A stretch of DNA of 30,885 bases, taken from the IMG/VR virus record IMGVR_UViG_3300026270_000017, positions 1-30,885 of that record, one strand, 5' to 3'. This document shows positions 16,019 through 30,885 of this stretch, piece after piece. A program made the translations under genes and the position numbers. The notes below the pieces were generated by a model. The model was not told the DNA's origin and did not search any database. It saw nothing but the letters and a program-made list of their open reading frames with translations. The stretch is from a virus. Taxonomy: Duplodnaviria; Caudoviricetes. The stretch's first letter is position 1, and every line of letters begins with the position of its first letter.

Positions 16019-16951
16019 TTATTTAATAACTGGACCTTGGTATTGACTGGTTGGACCAGCATTTCTCCTACGGTCTTTGATACGGGAGTACAAAGTTCTT
16101 TTACCATATTGTGTAGGAGATAGATTTTGATCGCCAGTTACATCTCTAGCAGTCTGTCTCATCAAATCAAAACTAGTACTTCTATTTACTTCACCAGCTG
16201 GACCAAAATTTCCAGTGTCTCTTACTGGTGCATTTGTGATTCTAGTATTAGTACCTTGTGGTTTCTGAGTAAGTTGCACTTGTGTACCAAATCTGACTGA
16301 TGGAGTCCCTGCCCAAGTTCCTTTTGGAACTTCATTTGCCTTATACTTATAAGGAACTGCTAGACCCCTTGTGGAACCAGTAAATGGAGTTCCATCGGCA
16401 GTTCTTTGAACTTTATCTTTACCAGTATTATATCCCTGAGATGTAGTATCTCCAGGACCATAGGAACTTGTGTTTACAGGTTTCCAACCATATCTTGCTG
16501 CTTCATCTGGTGTATGATCACGTTGAGTGAATTCTCCAGTGGTTTTATTTAATACACCTGGTTTATAATTTTTATATGCTAAAACTTTTGTATCTTTAGG
16601 AACTGGTTTTGGAGTTGGTGGAGTTTTTTTAGTGTTGAAGAAATTCAAGAACTCCTTAAGATTTTTCTTCTCAGTCATTCTCGCGGTGGATCTATCAAAA
16701 TGACTCCGATCCCCATCGCGATCATTACTATCAACATTGATGTTGCGAATACTATCATAACTAAGTTGCTCTTTACTCACCTTTTTATTAGGTAGTCCTT
16801 TGTGTTTTGTTCTGGCAAAATCACACGCATCATCTTTACTCATACTAGCAGATGCTTTTGCAACCTCAGGAGATGGATTTTTCATCTTACCCTTTTTGGC
16901 TGCACAGACCATACCCATAAATCTTTGTTGTGATTTAGATACCGCTGGCAT
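16019..16951 (-). CDS. Fusion of an N-terminal DUF3008-like basic domain and a C-terminal RlpA-like double-psi beta-barrel (putative lytic transglycosylase)
   Basis: MPAVSKSQQRFMGMV.AAKKG...MSKDDA.DFARTKHKGLP (DUF3008-like). SSYGPG...RTADGTPF...FGTQVQLT...VRDTGNF...FDLMRQTARDV parallels RlpA ASWYG...TANGE.F...FGT.V.VT...NDRGPF...IDLS..AA..L. Confidence 0.65.
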   Translation of the reverse strand: MPAVSKSQQRFMGMVCAAKKGKMKNPSPEVAKASASMSKDDACDFARTKHKGLPNKKVSKEQLSYDSIRNINVDSNDRDGDRSHFDRSTARMTEKKNLKEFLNFFNTKKTPPTPKPVPKDTKVLAYKNYKPGVLNKTTGEFTQRDHTPDEAARYGWKPVNTSSYGPGDTTSQGYNTGKDKVQRTADGTPFTGSTRGLAVPYKYKANEVPKGTWAGTPSVRFGTQVQLTQKPQGTNTRITNAPVRDTGNFGPAGEVNRSTSFDLMRQTARDVTGDQNLSPTQYGKRTLYSRIKDRRRNAGPTSQYQGPVIK

Positions 16952-19609: not shown

Positions 19610-20260
19610 TCAAAGATTTGAGAGGAAATTATTGAACAAATCCAATTTTTTCTCTTCAAGTTGTCTTTGACTTACGAGAGTATTAATTCTCTTCTTGGTT
19701 GTTTCGGCAAGGTGTTCACGAAGGATTCCTCCTTCCCAAACCCATTCTCTTCCTTCCATGATTCCGTTAACGAAAGCATCAGGAGCAGAAGGATCAGCAA
19801 CGATATCAGCAGCAGTTGCTAACTGGAAGTCTTCACCAACAATCTTACATCCTTCACTAGTGGTTTGAAGTGAACCAACACCACGAGAAGAAACGCCAAG
19901 CATTACACCTTCATCGAGAAGGGAAGATGCAATTTTACCCATAGGGGTAGAAAGGATTTGCGCCTTTCCTCTAAAGTTATTACCTTCTTTTACCAGAGAA
20001 GTAATTTTGTGAGAAACGCGATCAAGATTGACAGTAGGACCATCGGGATGACCGAGTTCACCAAGAGCACGACCCTTGTTGACAAAAGTTTCGCAATAGC
20101 GATTTACTTCCTTAGAAAGAGTGTTAATAGGATACATTCTCCCATTACGATTCTTGATTTCACCTTGAAGGAATGTTCCTTCAATATACAGTTTTTTATT
20201 AGCACCTTTTCCTTCGGTGATAACCTGTACGTTTGTTACTTCTTCTGTGATAAGTTTCAT
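19610..20260 (-). CDS. gp21: Prohead protease
   Basis: MKLITEE, KNRNGRMYP, ALGELGHP (catalytic His), GVSSRGVGSL (catalytic Ser), DIVADPSAPDAFV. Confidence 0.97.
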   Translation of the reverse strand: MKLITEEVTNVQVITEGKGANKKLYIEGTFLQGEIKNRNGRMYPINTLSKEVNRYCETFVNKGRALGELGHPDGPTVNLDRVSHKITSLVKEGNNFRGKAQILSTPMGKIASSLLDEGVMLGVSSRGVGSLQTTSEGCKIVGEDFQLATAADIVADPSAPDAFVNGIMEGREWVWEGGILREHLAETTKKRINTLVSQRQLEEKKLDLFNNFLSNL

Positions 20261-20289: not shown

Positions 20290-20296
20290 TATTTAT
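20290..20296 (-). promoter_or_regulatory. Late promoter (ATAAATA) for gp21
   Basis: 30 nt upstream of the gp21 ATG. Confidence 0.6.
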
Positions 20297-20308
20297 GATA
20301 AATGTGAG

Positions 20309-20341
20309 TTATAATCCTAGTCCTAAAAATGGATGTGCCAT
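20309..20341 (-). CDS. 10-codon micro-ORF MAHPFLGLGL (copy of the N-terminus of the 306-aa protein); functional peptide or gene remnant
   Basis: ATG 1 nt after the upstream TGA, SD-like GAGGAG 4 nt upstream, TAA at 20309-20311. Confidence 0.4.
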   Translation of the reverse strand: MAHPFLGLGL

Positions 20342-20342
20342 C

Positions 20343-20531
20343 TCACTCCTCGTCTCCTTTTGTCTCTATATAACCCAACTCTTTTGCTCTTACCAAACCA
20401 GATGTTTTGTCACTAAATGTTTCTATATTTGGTTGCCCGGATTCAAAAACAGAACCTGGATTTAGTTCAATAAAATGAACTGCACCATTTCCGTGACAGA
20501 CATACCAAGTTATAGTTGTAGGTGATTCCAT
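20343..20531 (-). CDS. Hypothetical 62-aa protein (possible fibre chaperone/partner)
   Basis: Starts 4 nt after the 306-aa gene stop; function inferred from position only. Confidence 0.65.
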   Translation of the reverse strand: MESPTTITWYVCHGNGAVHFIELNPGSVFESGQPNIETFSDKTSGLVRAKELGYIETKGDEE

Positions 20532-20535
20532 AGAA

Positions 20536-21456
20536 TTAAGTATTATAGGAAATTGTCCAACCTCTTGAAACTAATGCGTTATATGCACTATTTGCTGTTA
20601 CACTCCAGGTTGATTTGGCAGCATTTGTGCCTCCATCAATACCTAATGCGATATTACTAGCTCCATTGGTATCCAAAGAAGTAAGGATATTTTCAATGGA
20701 TTGAGCACTCAATGCACAATCTTTAAAAGCATTTTTAAAAGCATTGGATCCAAGAGTTCCAGTAGTATCAAATTGATTTGCAGGGAATGTTGTTAAATTA
20801 TCACAACTTCTCCAACAATTTTGAAAATCTGTACCACTAGTCATAGTGGCACCTGGAAATGAAACTAGACCATCACAACTTCTCCAAGTACCAGAGAAAC
20901 TAGTTCCACTTGACATATCCAAAATTGGAAAATTAACTACACCACTATTTCTCCAAGTATCATCAAAGATTGTGCCACTGGACACATTTATTCTTGGAAA
21001 CGTTGTTAATGCTGCAGTGGATTTCCAGGTGTTATCAAAATTTATTACATCTTTAGTTGCATTGAATCTCTGTCTATAAGTGCTGAGATTTGATGCACCA
21101 TCAAAAGCATTTGTCAGATTTGAACCTAGTTCAGAAGATTTTGCTCTTATTCTAACAAAAGTTAGTTGATCTATATCAGCATCTACACCATTAAAGAATG
21201 GTCGATAGACAGTATCAGGAGTTAAAATAACTTTTATTTTATAATTACCAGCAGAGTAGGTATGAGATAAGGTGTTAGATGTACTAGATTCAGAATCACC
21301 ATCACCCCAACTAACAGTATAATTAGCTGTTCCCATAGATCTTAAATTAAACGCTGCTCCAGTACTAGTTATTCTGTAAATAAAATCTGCTTTTTCTTCA
21401 CGTTCAAATTTCTGTGCCCAAGTGTCTAAACCTATTCCTAAAAATGGATGTGCCAT
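20536..21456 (-). CDS. PKD/Ig-like plus BspA/DUF285-type leucine-rich-repeat protein, candidate head fibre/adhesin
   Basis: YTVSWGDG...SHTY..GNYKI (PKD-like); 23-24-aa repeats F..TW.S...L..FP...SSGT; C-terminal cap ALVSRGWTISY. Confidence 0.7.
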   Translation of the reverse strand: MAHPFLGIGLDTWAQKFEREEKADFIYRITSTGAAFNLRSMGTANYTVSWGDGDSESSTSNTLSHTYSAGNYKIKVILTPDTVYRPFFNGVDADIDQLTFVRIRAKSSELGSNLTNAFDGASNLSTYRQRFNATKDVINFDNTWKSTAALTTFPRINVSSGTIFDDTWRNSGVVNFPILDMSSGTSFSGTWRSCDGLVSFPGATMTSGTDFQNCWRSCDNLTTFPANQFDTTGTLGSNAFKNAFKDCALSAQSIENILTSLDTNGASNIALGIDGGTNAAKSTWSVTANSAYNALVSRGWTISYNT

Positions 21457-21737
21457 TATGCACCCTCGTAAATCACCTTAGCTGTACTTCCTGTCAGTGA
21501 TTTGGCCCAAACATATGCAGCACTAGAAACATGACTCAAATCAGTGACAGTTTTCTTCATCTCTCCCTCATAAGTTTTATAAACCAATCCGGGATCAGTT
21601 GCTGTGGGTGCAGAGTTTGATGCAGTAAAATTCACTACAACAGGATTAGCACTCTGACATTGAAAAGTTATGGTAGTAACATTATTTCCGATAAGAACAT
21701 ATGCACTTGGTGTTACTTCTGTTGATGCTAATGCCAT
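21456..21737 (-). CDS. Small beta-strand-rich protein (93 aa), candidate capsid decoration/spike base
   Basis: Ser/Thr/Ala/Val-rich with all-beta patterning; TAATG coupling on both sides; located in the head module. Confidence 0.7.
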   Translation of the reverse strand: MALASTEVTPSAYVLIGNNVTTITFQCQSANPVVVNFTASNSAPTATDPGLVYKTYEGEMKKTVTDLSHVSSAAYVWAKSLTGSTAKVIYEGA

Positions 21738-22003
21738 TATTCTTGATCCTCTGGTGTTACTTCTGGTTCAGTTTCTGTTTCAATTTCATCGACTACTTCA
21801 TCGGTGAATTCATCACCAACTTCTGTTTCGACTTCACCTTCAACTTCAGGGTATTCAAATTCTTGACCGAACATTGCATTGGCAACATATGGTCTAGCAA
21901 TGTCAATTCTTTCTGCTGCCTTTGCATACATAATTTCTTTCATTTTGTCGCTAATATCTGATGATGATCCATCAGTAGCGATCAAATCGATAACATCTTC
22001 CAT
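21737..22003 (-). CDS. Small acidic prohead-core-like protein (gp67 positional analogue)
   Basis: Directly after the portal with its own TATAAATA; helical N-terminus and Glu-rich tail. Confidence 0.65.
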   Translation of the reverse strand: MEDVIDLIATDGSSSDISDKMKEIMYAKAAERIDIARPYVANAMFGQEFEYPEVEGEVETEVGDEFTDEVVDEIETETEPEVTPEDQE

Positions 22004-22028: not shown

Positions 22029-22036
22029 TATTTATA
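22029..22036 (-). promoter_or_regulatory. T4 late promoter TATAAATA
   Basis: Perfect consensus overlapping the gp20 stop codon. Confidence 0.85.
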
Positions 22037-23771
22037 ACTCAGACTTTCTGGTGTCTCTATCATACTGTCTGTTGATTCTTGCGGTTTCTGCATCAACATT
22101 TGGATCTGCAGGAACTTGACCCATTGCCATAGGATCTGCTCCCATTCCAGACATACCAGATCCATCTCCACCTTGCATTGATGGATCAACAGGTTGTGGT
22201 AACGGTTGACCAGTTACAGGATCAATTGTTGATGGATCTGGCAAAATACCCTTATTGATCTCATCTTCAATCTGTATATCAAGTTCAATAATTTCTTGAT
22301 CAGTCTGACGAAGAACTCTCTTACGAACGTATTCGGTAGAGTAATACTTACCAATATATGGTTCCATTTGTGCAAGAATGCCAAGTCTGTTTTGAATCAA
22401 CTCAGATTCTTTCAATTCCGCAAACTGATTATCATAAAGGAAATCATATTGGATATGATCCTTCATTGTCTCCCAATCTTCTGGAGTGCAGATATTTTTC
22501 AGAATCAACTGAGTTCTGAGCATATCATTGAACATTTGAGCAAAACGCTTCCTCAAACGACCAACAAATTTAGCAAATTTTAATTCGTCACGAAGGATCT
22601 CTGATGACCTTCCCAAATTAAAACCACCATCTGCAGCGATTCTGGACTCTGGAACACCAAGTGCTCTGTACAATTTCTTTTGGAAATACTCAATATCTGA
22701 AAGTTCTCCCAGATTTTGTCCACCAGGTAGGGTAGTGATTTCAGTACCGCGACCACCTTCTCTACGTGGTAACCAGAAGTCCTCCAACATAGACATAAAC
22801 TTGCGGTCATCACGAACTTCGCCAGTTTGTGCGTTGTAAACTAGTTTATTTCTGTAGCGAGACATAACCTCTTTGAGGTATTGCTCTGCTTTTACCTTAG
22901 GAAGATTACCAACATCAATATAAAAAATACGACGTTCTGGTGCTCTAGATAAACGATAAATGACCAAAGAGTCCTCAATCATTCTCAGTTGATTGAGTGC
23001 CTTGATTGCTTTGTGAAGATATGAAAGAACAGTATTCTTGTTTCTATCTACTAAACCAGAAGTACAGTAAGTTACAGAATCTTTTGCAATTTTTACTGAC
23101 TTTGATCTACCATTTAGAGATCCTGCTGGATAATTTGGTGATGGAGTATATTGGAAAAACTCTTCAAACTCTGGTCCATTAGCAAACTCTTCTTGAGATT
23201 TGCCGTTTATATTAATTGCATTACCAACTCTGGCAAATCCAGTGTCATATGCAGTACCTTTCTTTTCTTGACGAATATATTTGATTTTTAGAGGATCAAT
23301 ATATCTAAGTTCTTTGATACCTTCAAAAGGTGCTTTCTGATCAATAACTTTTAAGTAATATACTCTTCCGTCTACGTACCAGTTTCTAAAGATTTCGTGA
23401 GATTTTCTATCAAAATCTAATATTTCTTTGAGATACTTAAATTCTGCTCTGATTGTCTTCTTAAGATTTTCGCTCGCATTCAGATTAGAAAGTTCTATCT
23501 CCACAGGAGAATCGTAAAGATCGCTAACGATTGCTTCGTTAACTACATCTTCGATAGCACCATCCGCTTCAGGATGGAGAGACATTTCTCTATATCTTCT
23601 AATTAAATCATGCTCTGTTTTATAAACACCCTCAATGTCAACGTATTGACCATAAAATCCACTGCTAATATAGTTATCAACCCCGTCCTGATTAGTTTCA
23701 GGAACGGGGGAAATAACTGAAGGTGACTTATTTTGCTTGTCGTCAATTGAAAAACCAAAAAGTTTGGCCAT
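22032..23771 (-). CDS. gp20: Portal vertex protein
   Basis: MAKLFGFSI, FRNWYVDGR, YLHKAIKALNQLRMIEDSLVIYRLSRAPERRIFYIDVGNLPK, EDFWLPRREGGRGTEITTLPGGQNLG. Confidence 0.99.
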   Translation of the reverse strand: MAKLFGFSIDDKQNKSPSVISPVPETNQDGVDNYISSGFYGQYVDIEGVYKTEHDLIRRYREMSLHPEADGAIEDVVNEAIVSDLYDSPVEIELSNLNASENLKKTIRAEFKYLKEILDFDRKSHEIFRNWYVDGRVYYLKVIDQKAPFEGIKELRYIDPLKIKYIRQEKKGTAYDTGFARVGNAININGKSQEEFANGPEFEEFFQYTPSPNYPAGSLNGRSKSVKIAKDSVTYCTSGLVDRNKNTVLSYLHKAIKALNQLRMIEDSLVIYRLSRAPERRIFYIDVGNLPKVKAEQYLKEVMSRYRNKLVYNAQTGEVRDDRKFMSMLEDFWLPRREGGRGTEITTLPGGQNLGELSDIEYFQKKLYRALGVPESRIAADGGFNLGRSSEILRDELKFAKFVGRLRKRFAQMFNDMLRTQLILKNICTPEDWETMKDHIQYDFLYDNQFAELKESELIQNRLGILAQMEPYIGKYYSTEYVRKRVLRQTDQEIIELDIQIEDEINKGILPDPSTIDPVTGQPLPQPVDPSMQGGDGSGMSGMGADPMAMGQVPADPNVDAETARINRQYDRDTRKSEL

Positions 23772-28593: not shown

Positions 28594-30885
28594 TCAACAT
28601 CTCCAACGTTTACGTGCCTTACAGATTTTCTTATCTGGGGTTTTAGAACAATCAATATTATGCATATCCTTTTGACCCTTAGAGCGAGAGCAGAAAGACT
28701 TACGTCTCTTTGCATCCTTGCTTCCCTTCTTAACCTTGCCAGTTACAGCAGTTTTCAGTTTAGAACCTGGATTCTCGCGTTTATATGCATTGACGGAACT
28801 CTGACTCATACCATCAACACCGTCTTTGCGATTTGATTTCTGCCAGTCTTCTTTTACCTCCTTTTGTAATTTTGCTTGTTTCACAGGAATATATTGGTAT
28901 GGGTTTTTACCGCCACCTTCCTTGTCACGTCTGTTTTTCAGATACTCTCTCTGTTCTTTTTCACCATCTAAACGACTTCTTTCATCAATTAATTCAACTT
29001 CTTCCTTTCTAGTTTTCTTCTTTTTGACACAGTTTGGATATCTTTTACCAAACATTGTCTTCATACCTTTCTTTTCATAACCTTTCCAACATTTTTCATC
29101 AAGTTGACTTCCTTCTTCAAGTTCATCCGCACATTTAGCAACCGCTTTAGATTGCTTAGCGTGCATTTTAGAAGCACCTGCCAATTGCTTAGAAATCTCT
29201 TTCAATCTTTCTGCTTTTGATTTTGCTTCACCAAGAATATCTTCTCTTACAAATTTACCATTTTTGTAAGTGTAATTTGGCATTGGTACAGGTTCTTTAT
29301 TACCTTCTGATTTGTAATTAGGCATCGGTACAGGTTCTTTATTACCTTCTGATTTGTAATTAGGCATCGGTACAGGTTTTTTAGTACCTCTTGGTTTGTA
29401 TTCGGGCATTGGAACTGCCTTCTCACCAAGCATATCACTTCCAAGACCTTGAGTTGGTTGAAGTGGTTCATTAGAAATCAGATCTACAGACTCATATTCT
29501 GTTGCCTGGAAGTCATCTCTCCAGTTAGAATGATCATAATCTTCCTTGTTGAATGCCTTTTTGATTGCACCAACAACAAAAGGTGCAGCAACTGTTGCTG
29601 CAGTTAATGCAAGACCTAATTTACCACGACCGCGAGGACGAACTCTTGCTGGTTTTACACCACTTGGTTTTGGCATTGGATTGACACCACTGAAGTCGGG
29701 TTTTACGCCAGGACCGGGTCTATATGCAGAAGGATTCCTTTGCGCTTTCTGCCAAGCACTCTTTGGATTATTTCTGTTTGCATAGTCTGCAACACTTATT
29801 TTAGGAAGTTGTGCTCCTTTTCCTTGAGGTTTTGGAGTAGCACTCCTCATTCTTGCGAGAGTTGCTCTAATCTTATCTTCTGCACCCTTATTTGCCTTAA
29901 TAAGGTCCTCTATCTGTGATGCAGTCATTCCTTTGAGTTTATCCTCAAGACCTTCAAGAAGCATATCTTCTCTCCAGTTAGAGAAACTTTCTTTCTTAGT
30001 CTTATTGCCCCAGTTAGCAGCACCAACTTTACGACATTTTACCAGAGCACCTGAAGCATAAGCAGAAGGCCACACAGAATAACGAGACTTGACCTTATGA
30101 TAACAAGCATCTTTCTTTCCTTCATCTACTATCTCAGTTTCTTCAGGTAAAGGTTCATCCGCATAAATTTTTCTGCCTGCTTTTTTACTTGCTCTCCTAT
30201 AGCGATCCATATCCTCAGTTTCTGCCTTATTGTAAGACACTGGTTTGCCTTTACGGTCTAGAATGGGTTTGCCATTGATTGATGGATTGGAGTATCCAAT
30301 ATTTCCTTCATCAACTAATCCACCTTCTGGTTCATATGAGTTTCTAAGTCTCTGCATTTTTGGATCCAAAGTTCCTGGTTTTACACCAGCATTCTTTTCA
30401 ATTGCTCTTTGTCTAGCACCAGCACCAAATGGCTTTCCATTAATAGTAGTATTTTGTCTAGCATTATCTAATGCAGAATGTGCTTTCTTTCCCAGATGTT
30501 GTAGACCCTTATATGCAGCATATCCACCTGCAGCAACAAGAGGAATCGCGAGAGCAGGAGCAATTTCATCTATTTGTGCTAAATCTGATCTCCAGTTTGA
30601 ATAAGATTCTTGAGTCACGTTTTTTGCTCTCCCTCTTCTATTTGGATTTGGATCTTCTTTGCGTTTTTTAGCAGCTCTCTTATTTCTTTCCTCTTTACTC
30701 ATTGCTGCACGATCATCAGCGTCACGACAGTATGGTTTAGTCTTTTGTCCAGGTTGTTTTGCACAAGGTTTTCCGTCGTACTTACCACCAGTCTGTTTCC
30801 AACCACCGCCTTTGAACCAATCGCGAAGAGAGTAACCTTTAGATTTTGCGGATTTACCATCACGTTTTTCAATAATTACTTCTTC
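28594..30885 (-). CDS. Large modular basic protein (>=763 aa, 5'-truncated by the window), candidate virion polyprotein with DUF5872-like and DUF6321-like modules
   Basis: The frame stays open from 30702 to the window edge (EEVIIEKRDGKSAKSKGYSLRDWFKGGGW...), so the track's Met is internal. Contains WPSAYASG, LRDWF..GGW..GKPC, CWKGY...PNCVK and RRKSFC...RKRWRC modules. Confidence 0.8.
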   Translation of the reverse strand, partial: EEVIIEKRDGKSAKSKGYSLRDWFKGGGWKQTGGKYDGKPCAKQPGQKTKPYCRDADDRAAMSKEERNKRAAKKRKEDPNPNRRGRAKNVTQESYSNWRSDLAQIDEIAPALAIPLVAAGGYAAYKGLQHLGKKAHSALDNARQNTTINGKPFGAGARQRAIEKNAGVKPGTLDPKMQRLRNSYEPEGGLVDEGNIGYSNPSINGKPILDRKGKPVSYNKAETEDMDRYRRASKKAGRKIYADEPLPEETEIVDEGKKDACYHKVKSRYSVWPSAYASGALVKCRKVGAANWGNKTKKESFSNWREDMLLEGLEDKLKGMTASQIEDLIKANKGAEDKIRATLARMRSATPKPQGKGAQLPKISVADYANRNNPKSAWQKAQRNPSAYRPGPGVKPDFSGVNPMPKPSGVKPARVRPRGRGKLGLALTAATVAAPFVVGAIKKAFNKEDYDHSNWRDDFQATEYESVDLISNEPLQPTQGLGSDMLGEKAVPMPEYKPRGTKKPVPMPNYKSEGNKEPVPMPNYKSEGNKEPVPMPNYTYKNGKFVREDILGEAKSKAERLKEISKQLAGASKMHAKQSKAVAKCADELEEGSQLDEKCWKGYEKKGMKTMFGKRYPNCVKKKKTRKEEVELIDERSRLDGEKEQREYLKNRRDKEGGGKNPYQYIPVKQAKLQKEVKEDWQKSNRKDGVDGMSQSSVNAYKRENPGSKLKTAVTGKVKKGSKDAKRRKSFCSRSKGQKDMHNIDCSKTPDKKICKARKRWRC
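29271..29420 (-). repeat. Intragenic 42-bp tandem repeat (14-aa unit PVPMPNYKSEGNKE), about 3.5 copies
   Basis: Perfect 42-nt periodicity over 29285-29378, with degenerate flanking copies (AVPMPEYKPRGTKK; PVPMPNYTY). Confidence 0.92.

Follow-up and report, generated by a model that had tools for sequence, protein, structure and literature searches.

The structural region of a T4-like cyanophage carries a two-part cassette in which the gene for a 93-aa jelly-roll protein (hereafter, the base) is nearly always followed by a cargo gene encoding a constant tag of ~19 residues and an exchangeable adhesin- or lectin-like body. We propose, with a probability of about one half for the explanation as a whole, that this is a plug-and-socket display cassette of T4-like cyanophages and that the micro-ORF found beside it is the stump of a cargo gene. 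The window, i.e. the whole stretch of DNA analysed (30,885 nt; IMG/VR record IMGVR_UViG_3300026270_000017), belongs to a T4-like myovirus and covers its structural region, with the genes read on the minus strand. Pfam and PHROGs named the terminase, portal and prohead protease and, after these, UvsY, UvsW and the late sigma factor, and the sheath, tube, scaffold and major capsid genes were assigned from translations and gene order. The base-cargo locus lies between the portal and prohead-protease genes:

22032..23771, minus strand: g20 portal protein (context; PF07230, E = 1e-188)
21737..22003, minus strand: 88-aa acidic protein after the portal (context; phrog_14164, E = 4e-24), with its stop overlapping the base start
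21456..21737, minus strand: 93-aa small jelly-roll protein, the putative socket or 'base' (AlphaFold2 pLDDT 82.9 and fold matches)
20536..21456, minus strand: 306-aa cargo with anchor tag, PKD-like domain and short LRR-like solenoid, TAATG-coupled to the base
21400..21456, minus strand: N-terminal anchor tag, cargo residues 1-19 (profile of 70 distinct N-termini)
20343..20531, minus strand: 62-aa protein, partner of the PKD-LRR cargo (putative cap or chaperone)
20346..20351, minus strand: GAGGAG ribosome-binding site, made up of the terminal Glu codons of the 62-aa gene
20309..20341, minus strand: micro-ORF MAHPFLGLGL-stop, covering the first half of the tag and probably the remnant of a second cargo gene lost by deletion
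20290..20297, minus strand: late-promoter-like ATAAATA box before g21, present also before g21 in relatives
19610..20260, minus strand: g21 prohead protease (context; PF03420, E = 3e-36)

All four reading frames on which the first-pass annotation had been built, i.e. those of the 93-aa protein, the 306-aa protein starting MAHPFLGIGL, the 62-aa protein and the micro-ORF, were recovered at their places. The ATAAATA box resembles the T4 late promoter consensus. Among the annotated phages (50,697 records searched), the 93-aa gene was found only in Synechococcus phage S-SKS1 (2 records), and the window is therefore likely to originate from a marine cyanophage. Locus L001 is 99.8% identical to the window and was counted as the same strain. 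Elsewhere in the window, the gene before the terminase (28594-30885, minus strand) encodes a basic mosaic protein (763+ residues) that contains PVPMPNYK repeats and has DUF6321 at its C-terminus, and a 310-aa protein with an N-terminal DUF3008 directly follows the major capsid gene (16019-16951, minus strand). At position 21760, contigs of read runs X3 and X4 have loose ends; more abundant related phages have another gene after the 88-aa gene, and the slot is thus exchanged as a whole.

The association of base and cargo was assessed in 55 viral loci and the best 80 of 90 metagenome loci. After exclusion of L057 and of partial matches, the 133 loci in which the base gene is complete grouped into 55 clusters at 95% nucleotide identity. 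The downstream ORF bears the tag in 51 of the 55 clusters and has a variant Phe-Gly-rich (aromatic/Gly) start in three others (L047, L130 and L053), while the remaining cluster (L009) has no cargo and its base region runs straight into g21. In both complete genomes searched (2/2), base and tag occur once each and side by side. This coupling supports the reading of the pair as a base plus an anchored cargo. The usual position of the cassette is inside the g20-g21 head operon, and several copies lie outside it (L068, L076, L084). In another phage (L207), a distant base relative is likewise encoded after the portal module, and its gene overlaps a cargo gene of 600+ codons that has a PFGxxFG start. 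Variant starts with Phe at about every fourth residue (FGxxFG; L047:4285, L053:4292, L130:1029, L207:2776) accompany more diverged bases, and it is possible that tag and socket co-vary in these loci.

The tag has the consensus PFLGLG[F/L]xSx[W/F]xxFxR and spans ~19 residues, followed by a Gly/Ala/Ser linker. In the profile of 70 distinct N-termini it reads P4 F5 L6 G7 L8 G9 (F/L)10 x S12 (W/P)13 (F)14 x x F17 x R19. Since positions 4-9 served as the selection pattern, part of their constancy follows from the sampling; positions 12-19 played no part in the selection, and here position 17 is aromatic in 70/70 N-termini and Arg19 is present in 63/70. Anchoring by an N-terminal peptide, as first proposed, agrees with a conserved tag, but the conserved stretch is ~19 residues long rather than 10. 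Across 48 distinct motif sequences, pairwise comparison of the first six motif codons gave 2973 synonymous and 446 non-synonymous differences, i.e. the motif is conserved as protein.

The bodies that follow the tag belong to 12 unrelated families among 53 cargos. Pfam searches with 38 cargo proteins identified LamG/concanavalin, FG-GAP and SBBP propellers, SPRY, PKD and BspA-type LRR domains, and many cargos had no hit. When mapped on the base tree, cargo type changes 32 times (minimum 12, shuffled mean 38.7), and near-identical bases are found with different cargos (L040/L041, L014/L085). Cargo genes are plausibly swapped among cassettes, the tag plausibly being a crossover point. Two clusters have tandem full cargos, 3 of 59 spacers hold C-terminal cargo fragments, or scars (L018, L019, L044), and two loci (L039, L117) have a partial second 62-aa gene after the cargo. 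The window's 306-aa protein, which contains three 23-24-codon repeats, belongs to the PKD-LRR family (9 of the 53 proteins). Its initial description as a PKD/LRR protein is borne out by a relative in L031, which clears both the PKD and the BspA-LRR cut-offs, whereas in the window protein itself the PKD match is weak (PF18911, E = 0.001, under the curated cut-off). Homologs of the 62-aa protein are encoded beside PKD-LRR cargos and, in another phage (L205), downstream of a PKD-LRR protein that has no tag. Judged by these sequence neighbourhoods, the 62-aa protein appears to belong to the PKD-LRR cargo type, perhaps as its cap or chaperone; searches against Pfam and PHROGs returned no named family for it.

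The base has 121 close relatives (76 representatives at 50% clustering). Its AlphaFold2 model is an eight-stranded beta-sandwich predicted to be almost all-beta, which agrees with its initial description as a beta protein. The best match among solved structures is PirA (Z 8.1, rmsd 3.4, 84 aligned residues), and further matches include Ena (Z 7.1) and two viral vertex proteins, STIV turret A223 (Z 6.4, rmsd 3.2, 78 aligned) and PM2 spike P1 (Z 6.1, rmsd 3.2, 77 aligned). These jelly rolls and double-stranded beta-helices score in a middling range (Z 6-8) and may reflect only a common sandwich. In BFVD, many unnamed phage proteins of ~90 residues match the model, 11 of them at E up to 0.001. 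Neither the base sequence nor its profile returned a named family from Pfam, PHROGs or PDB sequences, and three distant base homologs used as queries against annotated phages retrieved only S-SKS1 and one chance-level match. DUF7243 clusters are the nearest named neighbours of the base in the Atlas (score 0.84), a lead that Pfam searches with 88 members did not confirm; a two-repeat DUF7243 protein of 182 aa is encoded between cargo and g21 in one locus (L092:4530-5078). S-SZBM1_195 (L208:20378-20641), an abundant 87-aa virion protein with no assigned function in another cyanomyovirus, was also considered as a relative of the base and proved unrelated by HHalign.

In the Rhodobacter capsulatus gene transfer agent (RcGTA), a jelly-roll pentamer on each vertex grips residues 2-10 of one flexible capsule-binding fibre, according to PMC7296036, with which the facts given about Rcc01079 and Rcc01080 in the first-pass annotation agree. 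For comparison, an Rcc01079-family alignment of 38 rows was built from 55 genome loci; it was seeded by the RcapNL homolog (gp29), a protein named as such in PMC5026251, which matches 6tb9_E3 at E = 3e-30 in a profile search of PDB sequences. HHalign of the 88-row base alignment against this alignment gave a probability of 0.39%, i.e. no sequence homology, and the base-family profile matched none of the Rcc01079-type solved bases, Carin-1 included, among PDB sequences. In fold searches with the base model, 6TB9 and 8CJZ were absent among the matches listed (top 50, down to Z 5.1), which does not by itself prove a different fold; a control model of the Rcc01079 family retrieved them from the same wide library at Z 15.4 and Z 11.1, respectively. 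None of the 26 BFVD hits of the control (E up to 0.01) recurs in the BFVD list of the base. By sequence, then, the base falls outside the Rcc01079 family and appears to represent a separate one. The proposal of a base with an anchored fibre is strongly supported by comparative data, but not by homology to Rcc01079 (HHalign ~0.4%). Gene coupling, tag chemistry and cargo types fit the RcGTA design, and the base probably works by analogy with that head spike.

The micro-ORF repeats the beginning of the 306-aa gene. The two 30-nt copies are equal at 28/30 positions and differ, exactly as first described, by ATA to CTA (Ile to Leu) and the synonymous GGT to GGA; the chance expectation for such a match in the window is ~1e-9. 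The micro-ORF is spanned by contigs of three studies, which among the differences listed deviate at 2 letters over 545 nt (X3), at none over 400 nt (X4) and at 12 over ~1517 nt (X7) (4 of 20 read runs were checked, and X1, the possible source, was left out), and hence the micro-ORF is real and no assembly artefact. Run X8 gave no contig across 20328-20418, and the single RNA run contained 5% of the sequence words, observations that weigh on neither side. Its translation signals are a Shine-Dalgarno (SD) sequence and coupling to the 62-aa stop. GAGGAG is indeed located 4 nt before the ATG, and among 11 genes tested its duplex with a generic anti-SD is the strongest (-10.4 kcal/mol), but the two terminal Glu codons of the 62-aa gene supply it. 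In other locus rows with a 62-aa homolog, a full cargo gene comes directly next in 24 of 26, in L123 with the same spacing of stop, 1 nt and ATG as in the window. The position of the micro-ORF is therefore that of a former cargo gene, and its ribosome-binding site is inherited.

Micro-ORFs are present in 2 of the 44 clusters with a visible cassette end, one of which is the window's own (1/43 besides), and the cargo-less cluster L009 has none; neither conservation among relatives nor retention where the fibre is lacking was thus observed. Pattern scans of viral contigs for a tag plus stop (stop at residue 11 or 12; Y/H/N before Pro) found only the window's strain, the nine other hits being without a start codon. 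The encoded peptide covers half of the conserved tag and is devoid of residues 11-19. The last codons read Leu-Gly-Ser-stop in FG-GAP cargos and Phe-Gly-Leu-stop in LamG cargos, and these ends have up to 8 in-frame bases in common with the Leu-Gly codons of the tag; in L066, whose cargo starts MAHPFLGLGF, 8 in-frame nt are common to its own tag and gene end. GGA-T..-stop is read by 6 of 45 distinct cargo ends, compared to 0.95% per codon. Given this microhomology, a single deletion would yield an anchor plus stop without selection. A search for a parent gene with the exact DNA 3' of the micro-ORF returned one match, the window's own strain.

The second anchor-only ORF, MTYPFLGLGFV-stop, follows a propeller cargo outside the head operon in L068 and L071, which are identical over 7276 nt and thus count as one case. 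A late-promoter-like box precedes it by 8 nt, and a hairpin with a run of T follows it. Its flanks resemble the g21 spacer of relatives, so that duplication and deletion can also explain this ORF. This cassette (L068:3501-4830) is located in an auxiliary-gene island, with psbD upstream and petF (ferredoxin), petE (plastocyanin) and talC (transaldolase) downstream, by ORF reading. A single clade for the two micro-ORF-bearing bases was not rejected by the AU test (p = 0.096), and each micro-ORF differs by 1-2 nt from the start of its own cargo, with starts in other lineages equally close, which gives no sign of concerted evolution. The two ORFs are apparently of separate origin, as judged from their different cargos, contexts and start codons. 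Taken together, the micro-ORF of the window is most likely a deletion stump, or scar, of cargo swapping and not a dedicated plug.

The first-pass annotation had instead proposed a plug or decoy: the socket holds, and the micro-ORF is a selected, translated peptide that fills some sockets and tunes fibre number. Such a role is poorly supported and we consider it quite unlikely. The strength of the ribosome-binding site, the near-identical contigs from three studies and the second case, with its other cargo family and context, own promoter-like box and terminator-like hairpin, would all fit a plug, as would the fact that both anchor-only ORFs end no more than one codon away from residue 10, which is the peptide length resolved in RcGTA (PMC7296036). 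However, the SD is inherited, the stop position follows from the microhomology, half of the conserved tag is missing, L068 and L071 are one case, the ORF is rare and absent from the cargo-less cluster, and a deletion stump readily explains it. A broader version, in which a second, non-homologous head-adhesin socket system is accompanied in at least two lineages by separately acquired free socket-plugging peptides of 10-11 residues that set adhesin number, is somewhat more doubtful still. The conserved 30 nt could also be a DNA-level recombination or regulatory site with an incidental peptide, as suits a plausible crossover point in cargo swapping, but this is largely refuted by the preponderance of synonymous differences and seems highly improbable.

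The remaining alternatives concern where the cassette acts. A socket at another site of the virion (the centre of hexons, the neck or the tail sheath) is unlikely but has some support, since the base is outside the Rcc01079 family by sequence and the longer tag, with aromatics at about every fourth position in the variants (L047, L053, L207), could fit another symmetry; against it, the cassette usually resides inside the head operon and the jelly-roll matches include vertex turrets and spikes. T4 internal proteins bear a capsid-targeting signal, and T4 keeps prohead core genes at the corresponding locus, beside the protease. The tag might accordingly be an internal targeting signal, or the cassette might encode a non-virion product acting on the host, as its occasional presence among auxiliary metabolic genes (L068) would allow. 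We regard both versions as improbable: the cargo bodies are large, with lectin- and adhesin-like folds, the tag lacks a conserved Glu of the kind that gp21 cleavage requires, and there is one tag per genome, always beside the base.

In the favoured display scenario, the base would oligomerise on the outside of the capsid, with the five-fold vertices as the most likely site, and the resulting ring would grip the hydrophobic tag, while the Gly/Ala-rich linker would let the body reach host surface glycans for a first, reversible attachment. The 62-aa protein would serve the PKD-LRR cargo type. The micro-ORF would be what remains at the 5' end of a second cargo gene after a deletion that joined the Leu-Gly codons of the tag to a similar Gly-x-stop end; translation from the inherited ribosome-binding site may occur, but the ORF is probably not under selection.

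If the socket reading is true, abundant marine cyanomyoviruses carry on their heads an overlooked, fast-swapping host-contact module that is distinct from the tail fibres and could influence both initial attachment and host range. The tag is short and carries bodies of 185 to >1300 residues, making it a possible display tool. The micro-ORF suggests that cargo swapping leaves anchor-only stumps, which calls for caution with other 'free plug peptides' and possibly provides raw material for real ones. A literature search found nothing on head spikes or a base-cargo cassette in T4-like cyanophages and no virion proteome or structure of S-SKS1; it reached few subscription journals, and supplementary proteome tables could bear on virion location. 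The cultured S-SKS1, grown on Synechococcus WH7803, makes the socket reading directly testable. In this phage (NC_020851), SWZG_00144, 00143 and 00142, all annotated as hypothetical, encode a base 64.5% identical to that of the window, a 62-aa homolog and a tagged PKD-LRR cargo between portal and protease, in that order and without the micro-ORF.

Among known systems, the closest in design is the RcGTA head spike (Rcc01079 pentamer and Rcc01080 fibre; PDB 6TB9; PMC7296036), in which a small jelly-roll gene directly precedes a gene with a hydrophobic-Gly start and the fibre, like the cyanophage cargos, has a variable carbohydrate-binding-type body. The RcapNL pair shows the same gene overlap, and its fibre starts GLGLGIGLGL; in RcapNL gp30 (L148:20845-21279), the Leu-Gly run is followed by SAVSRP, an echo of the S..SR tail of the cyanophage tag. 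The Carin-1 spike base (PDB 8CJZ chain h, by its PDB title from a marine phage capsid) is similar in size (~90 aa) to the cyanophage base, but groups structurally with the Rcc01079 family (rmsd 3.0, 79 residues aligned to the control model). STIV A223 and PM2 P1 are vertex-borne adhesion parts, as proposed for the base, and a peptide-socket mechanism is attributed to neither; phage 7-7-1 likewise has capsid fibres as vertex-borne adhesion parts, the proteins of which are unidentified (PMC12796354). The cyanophage tag differs from that of RcGTA in its ~19 residues with conserved Pro-Phe and Phe-x-Arg, and has three to four alternating hydrophobic-Gly residues versus five in Rcc01079-type systems; the occurrence in a T4-like myovirus, the 12 cargo families and the anchor-only ORFs are further differences. 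The base-cargo cassette thus appears to be a variant of the peptide-socket head spike that has not been described before, one in which the base belongs to a new family and the cargos are highly diverse.
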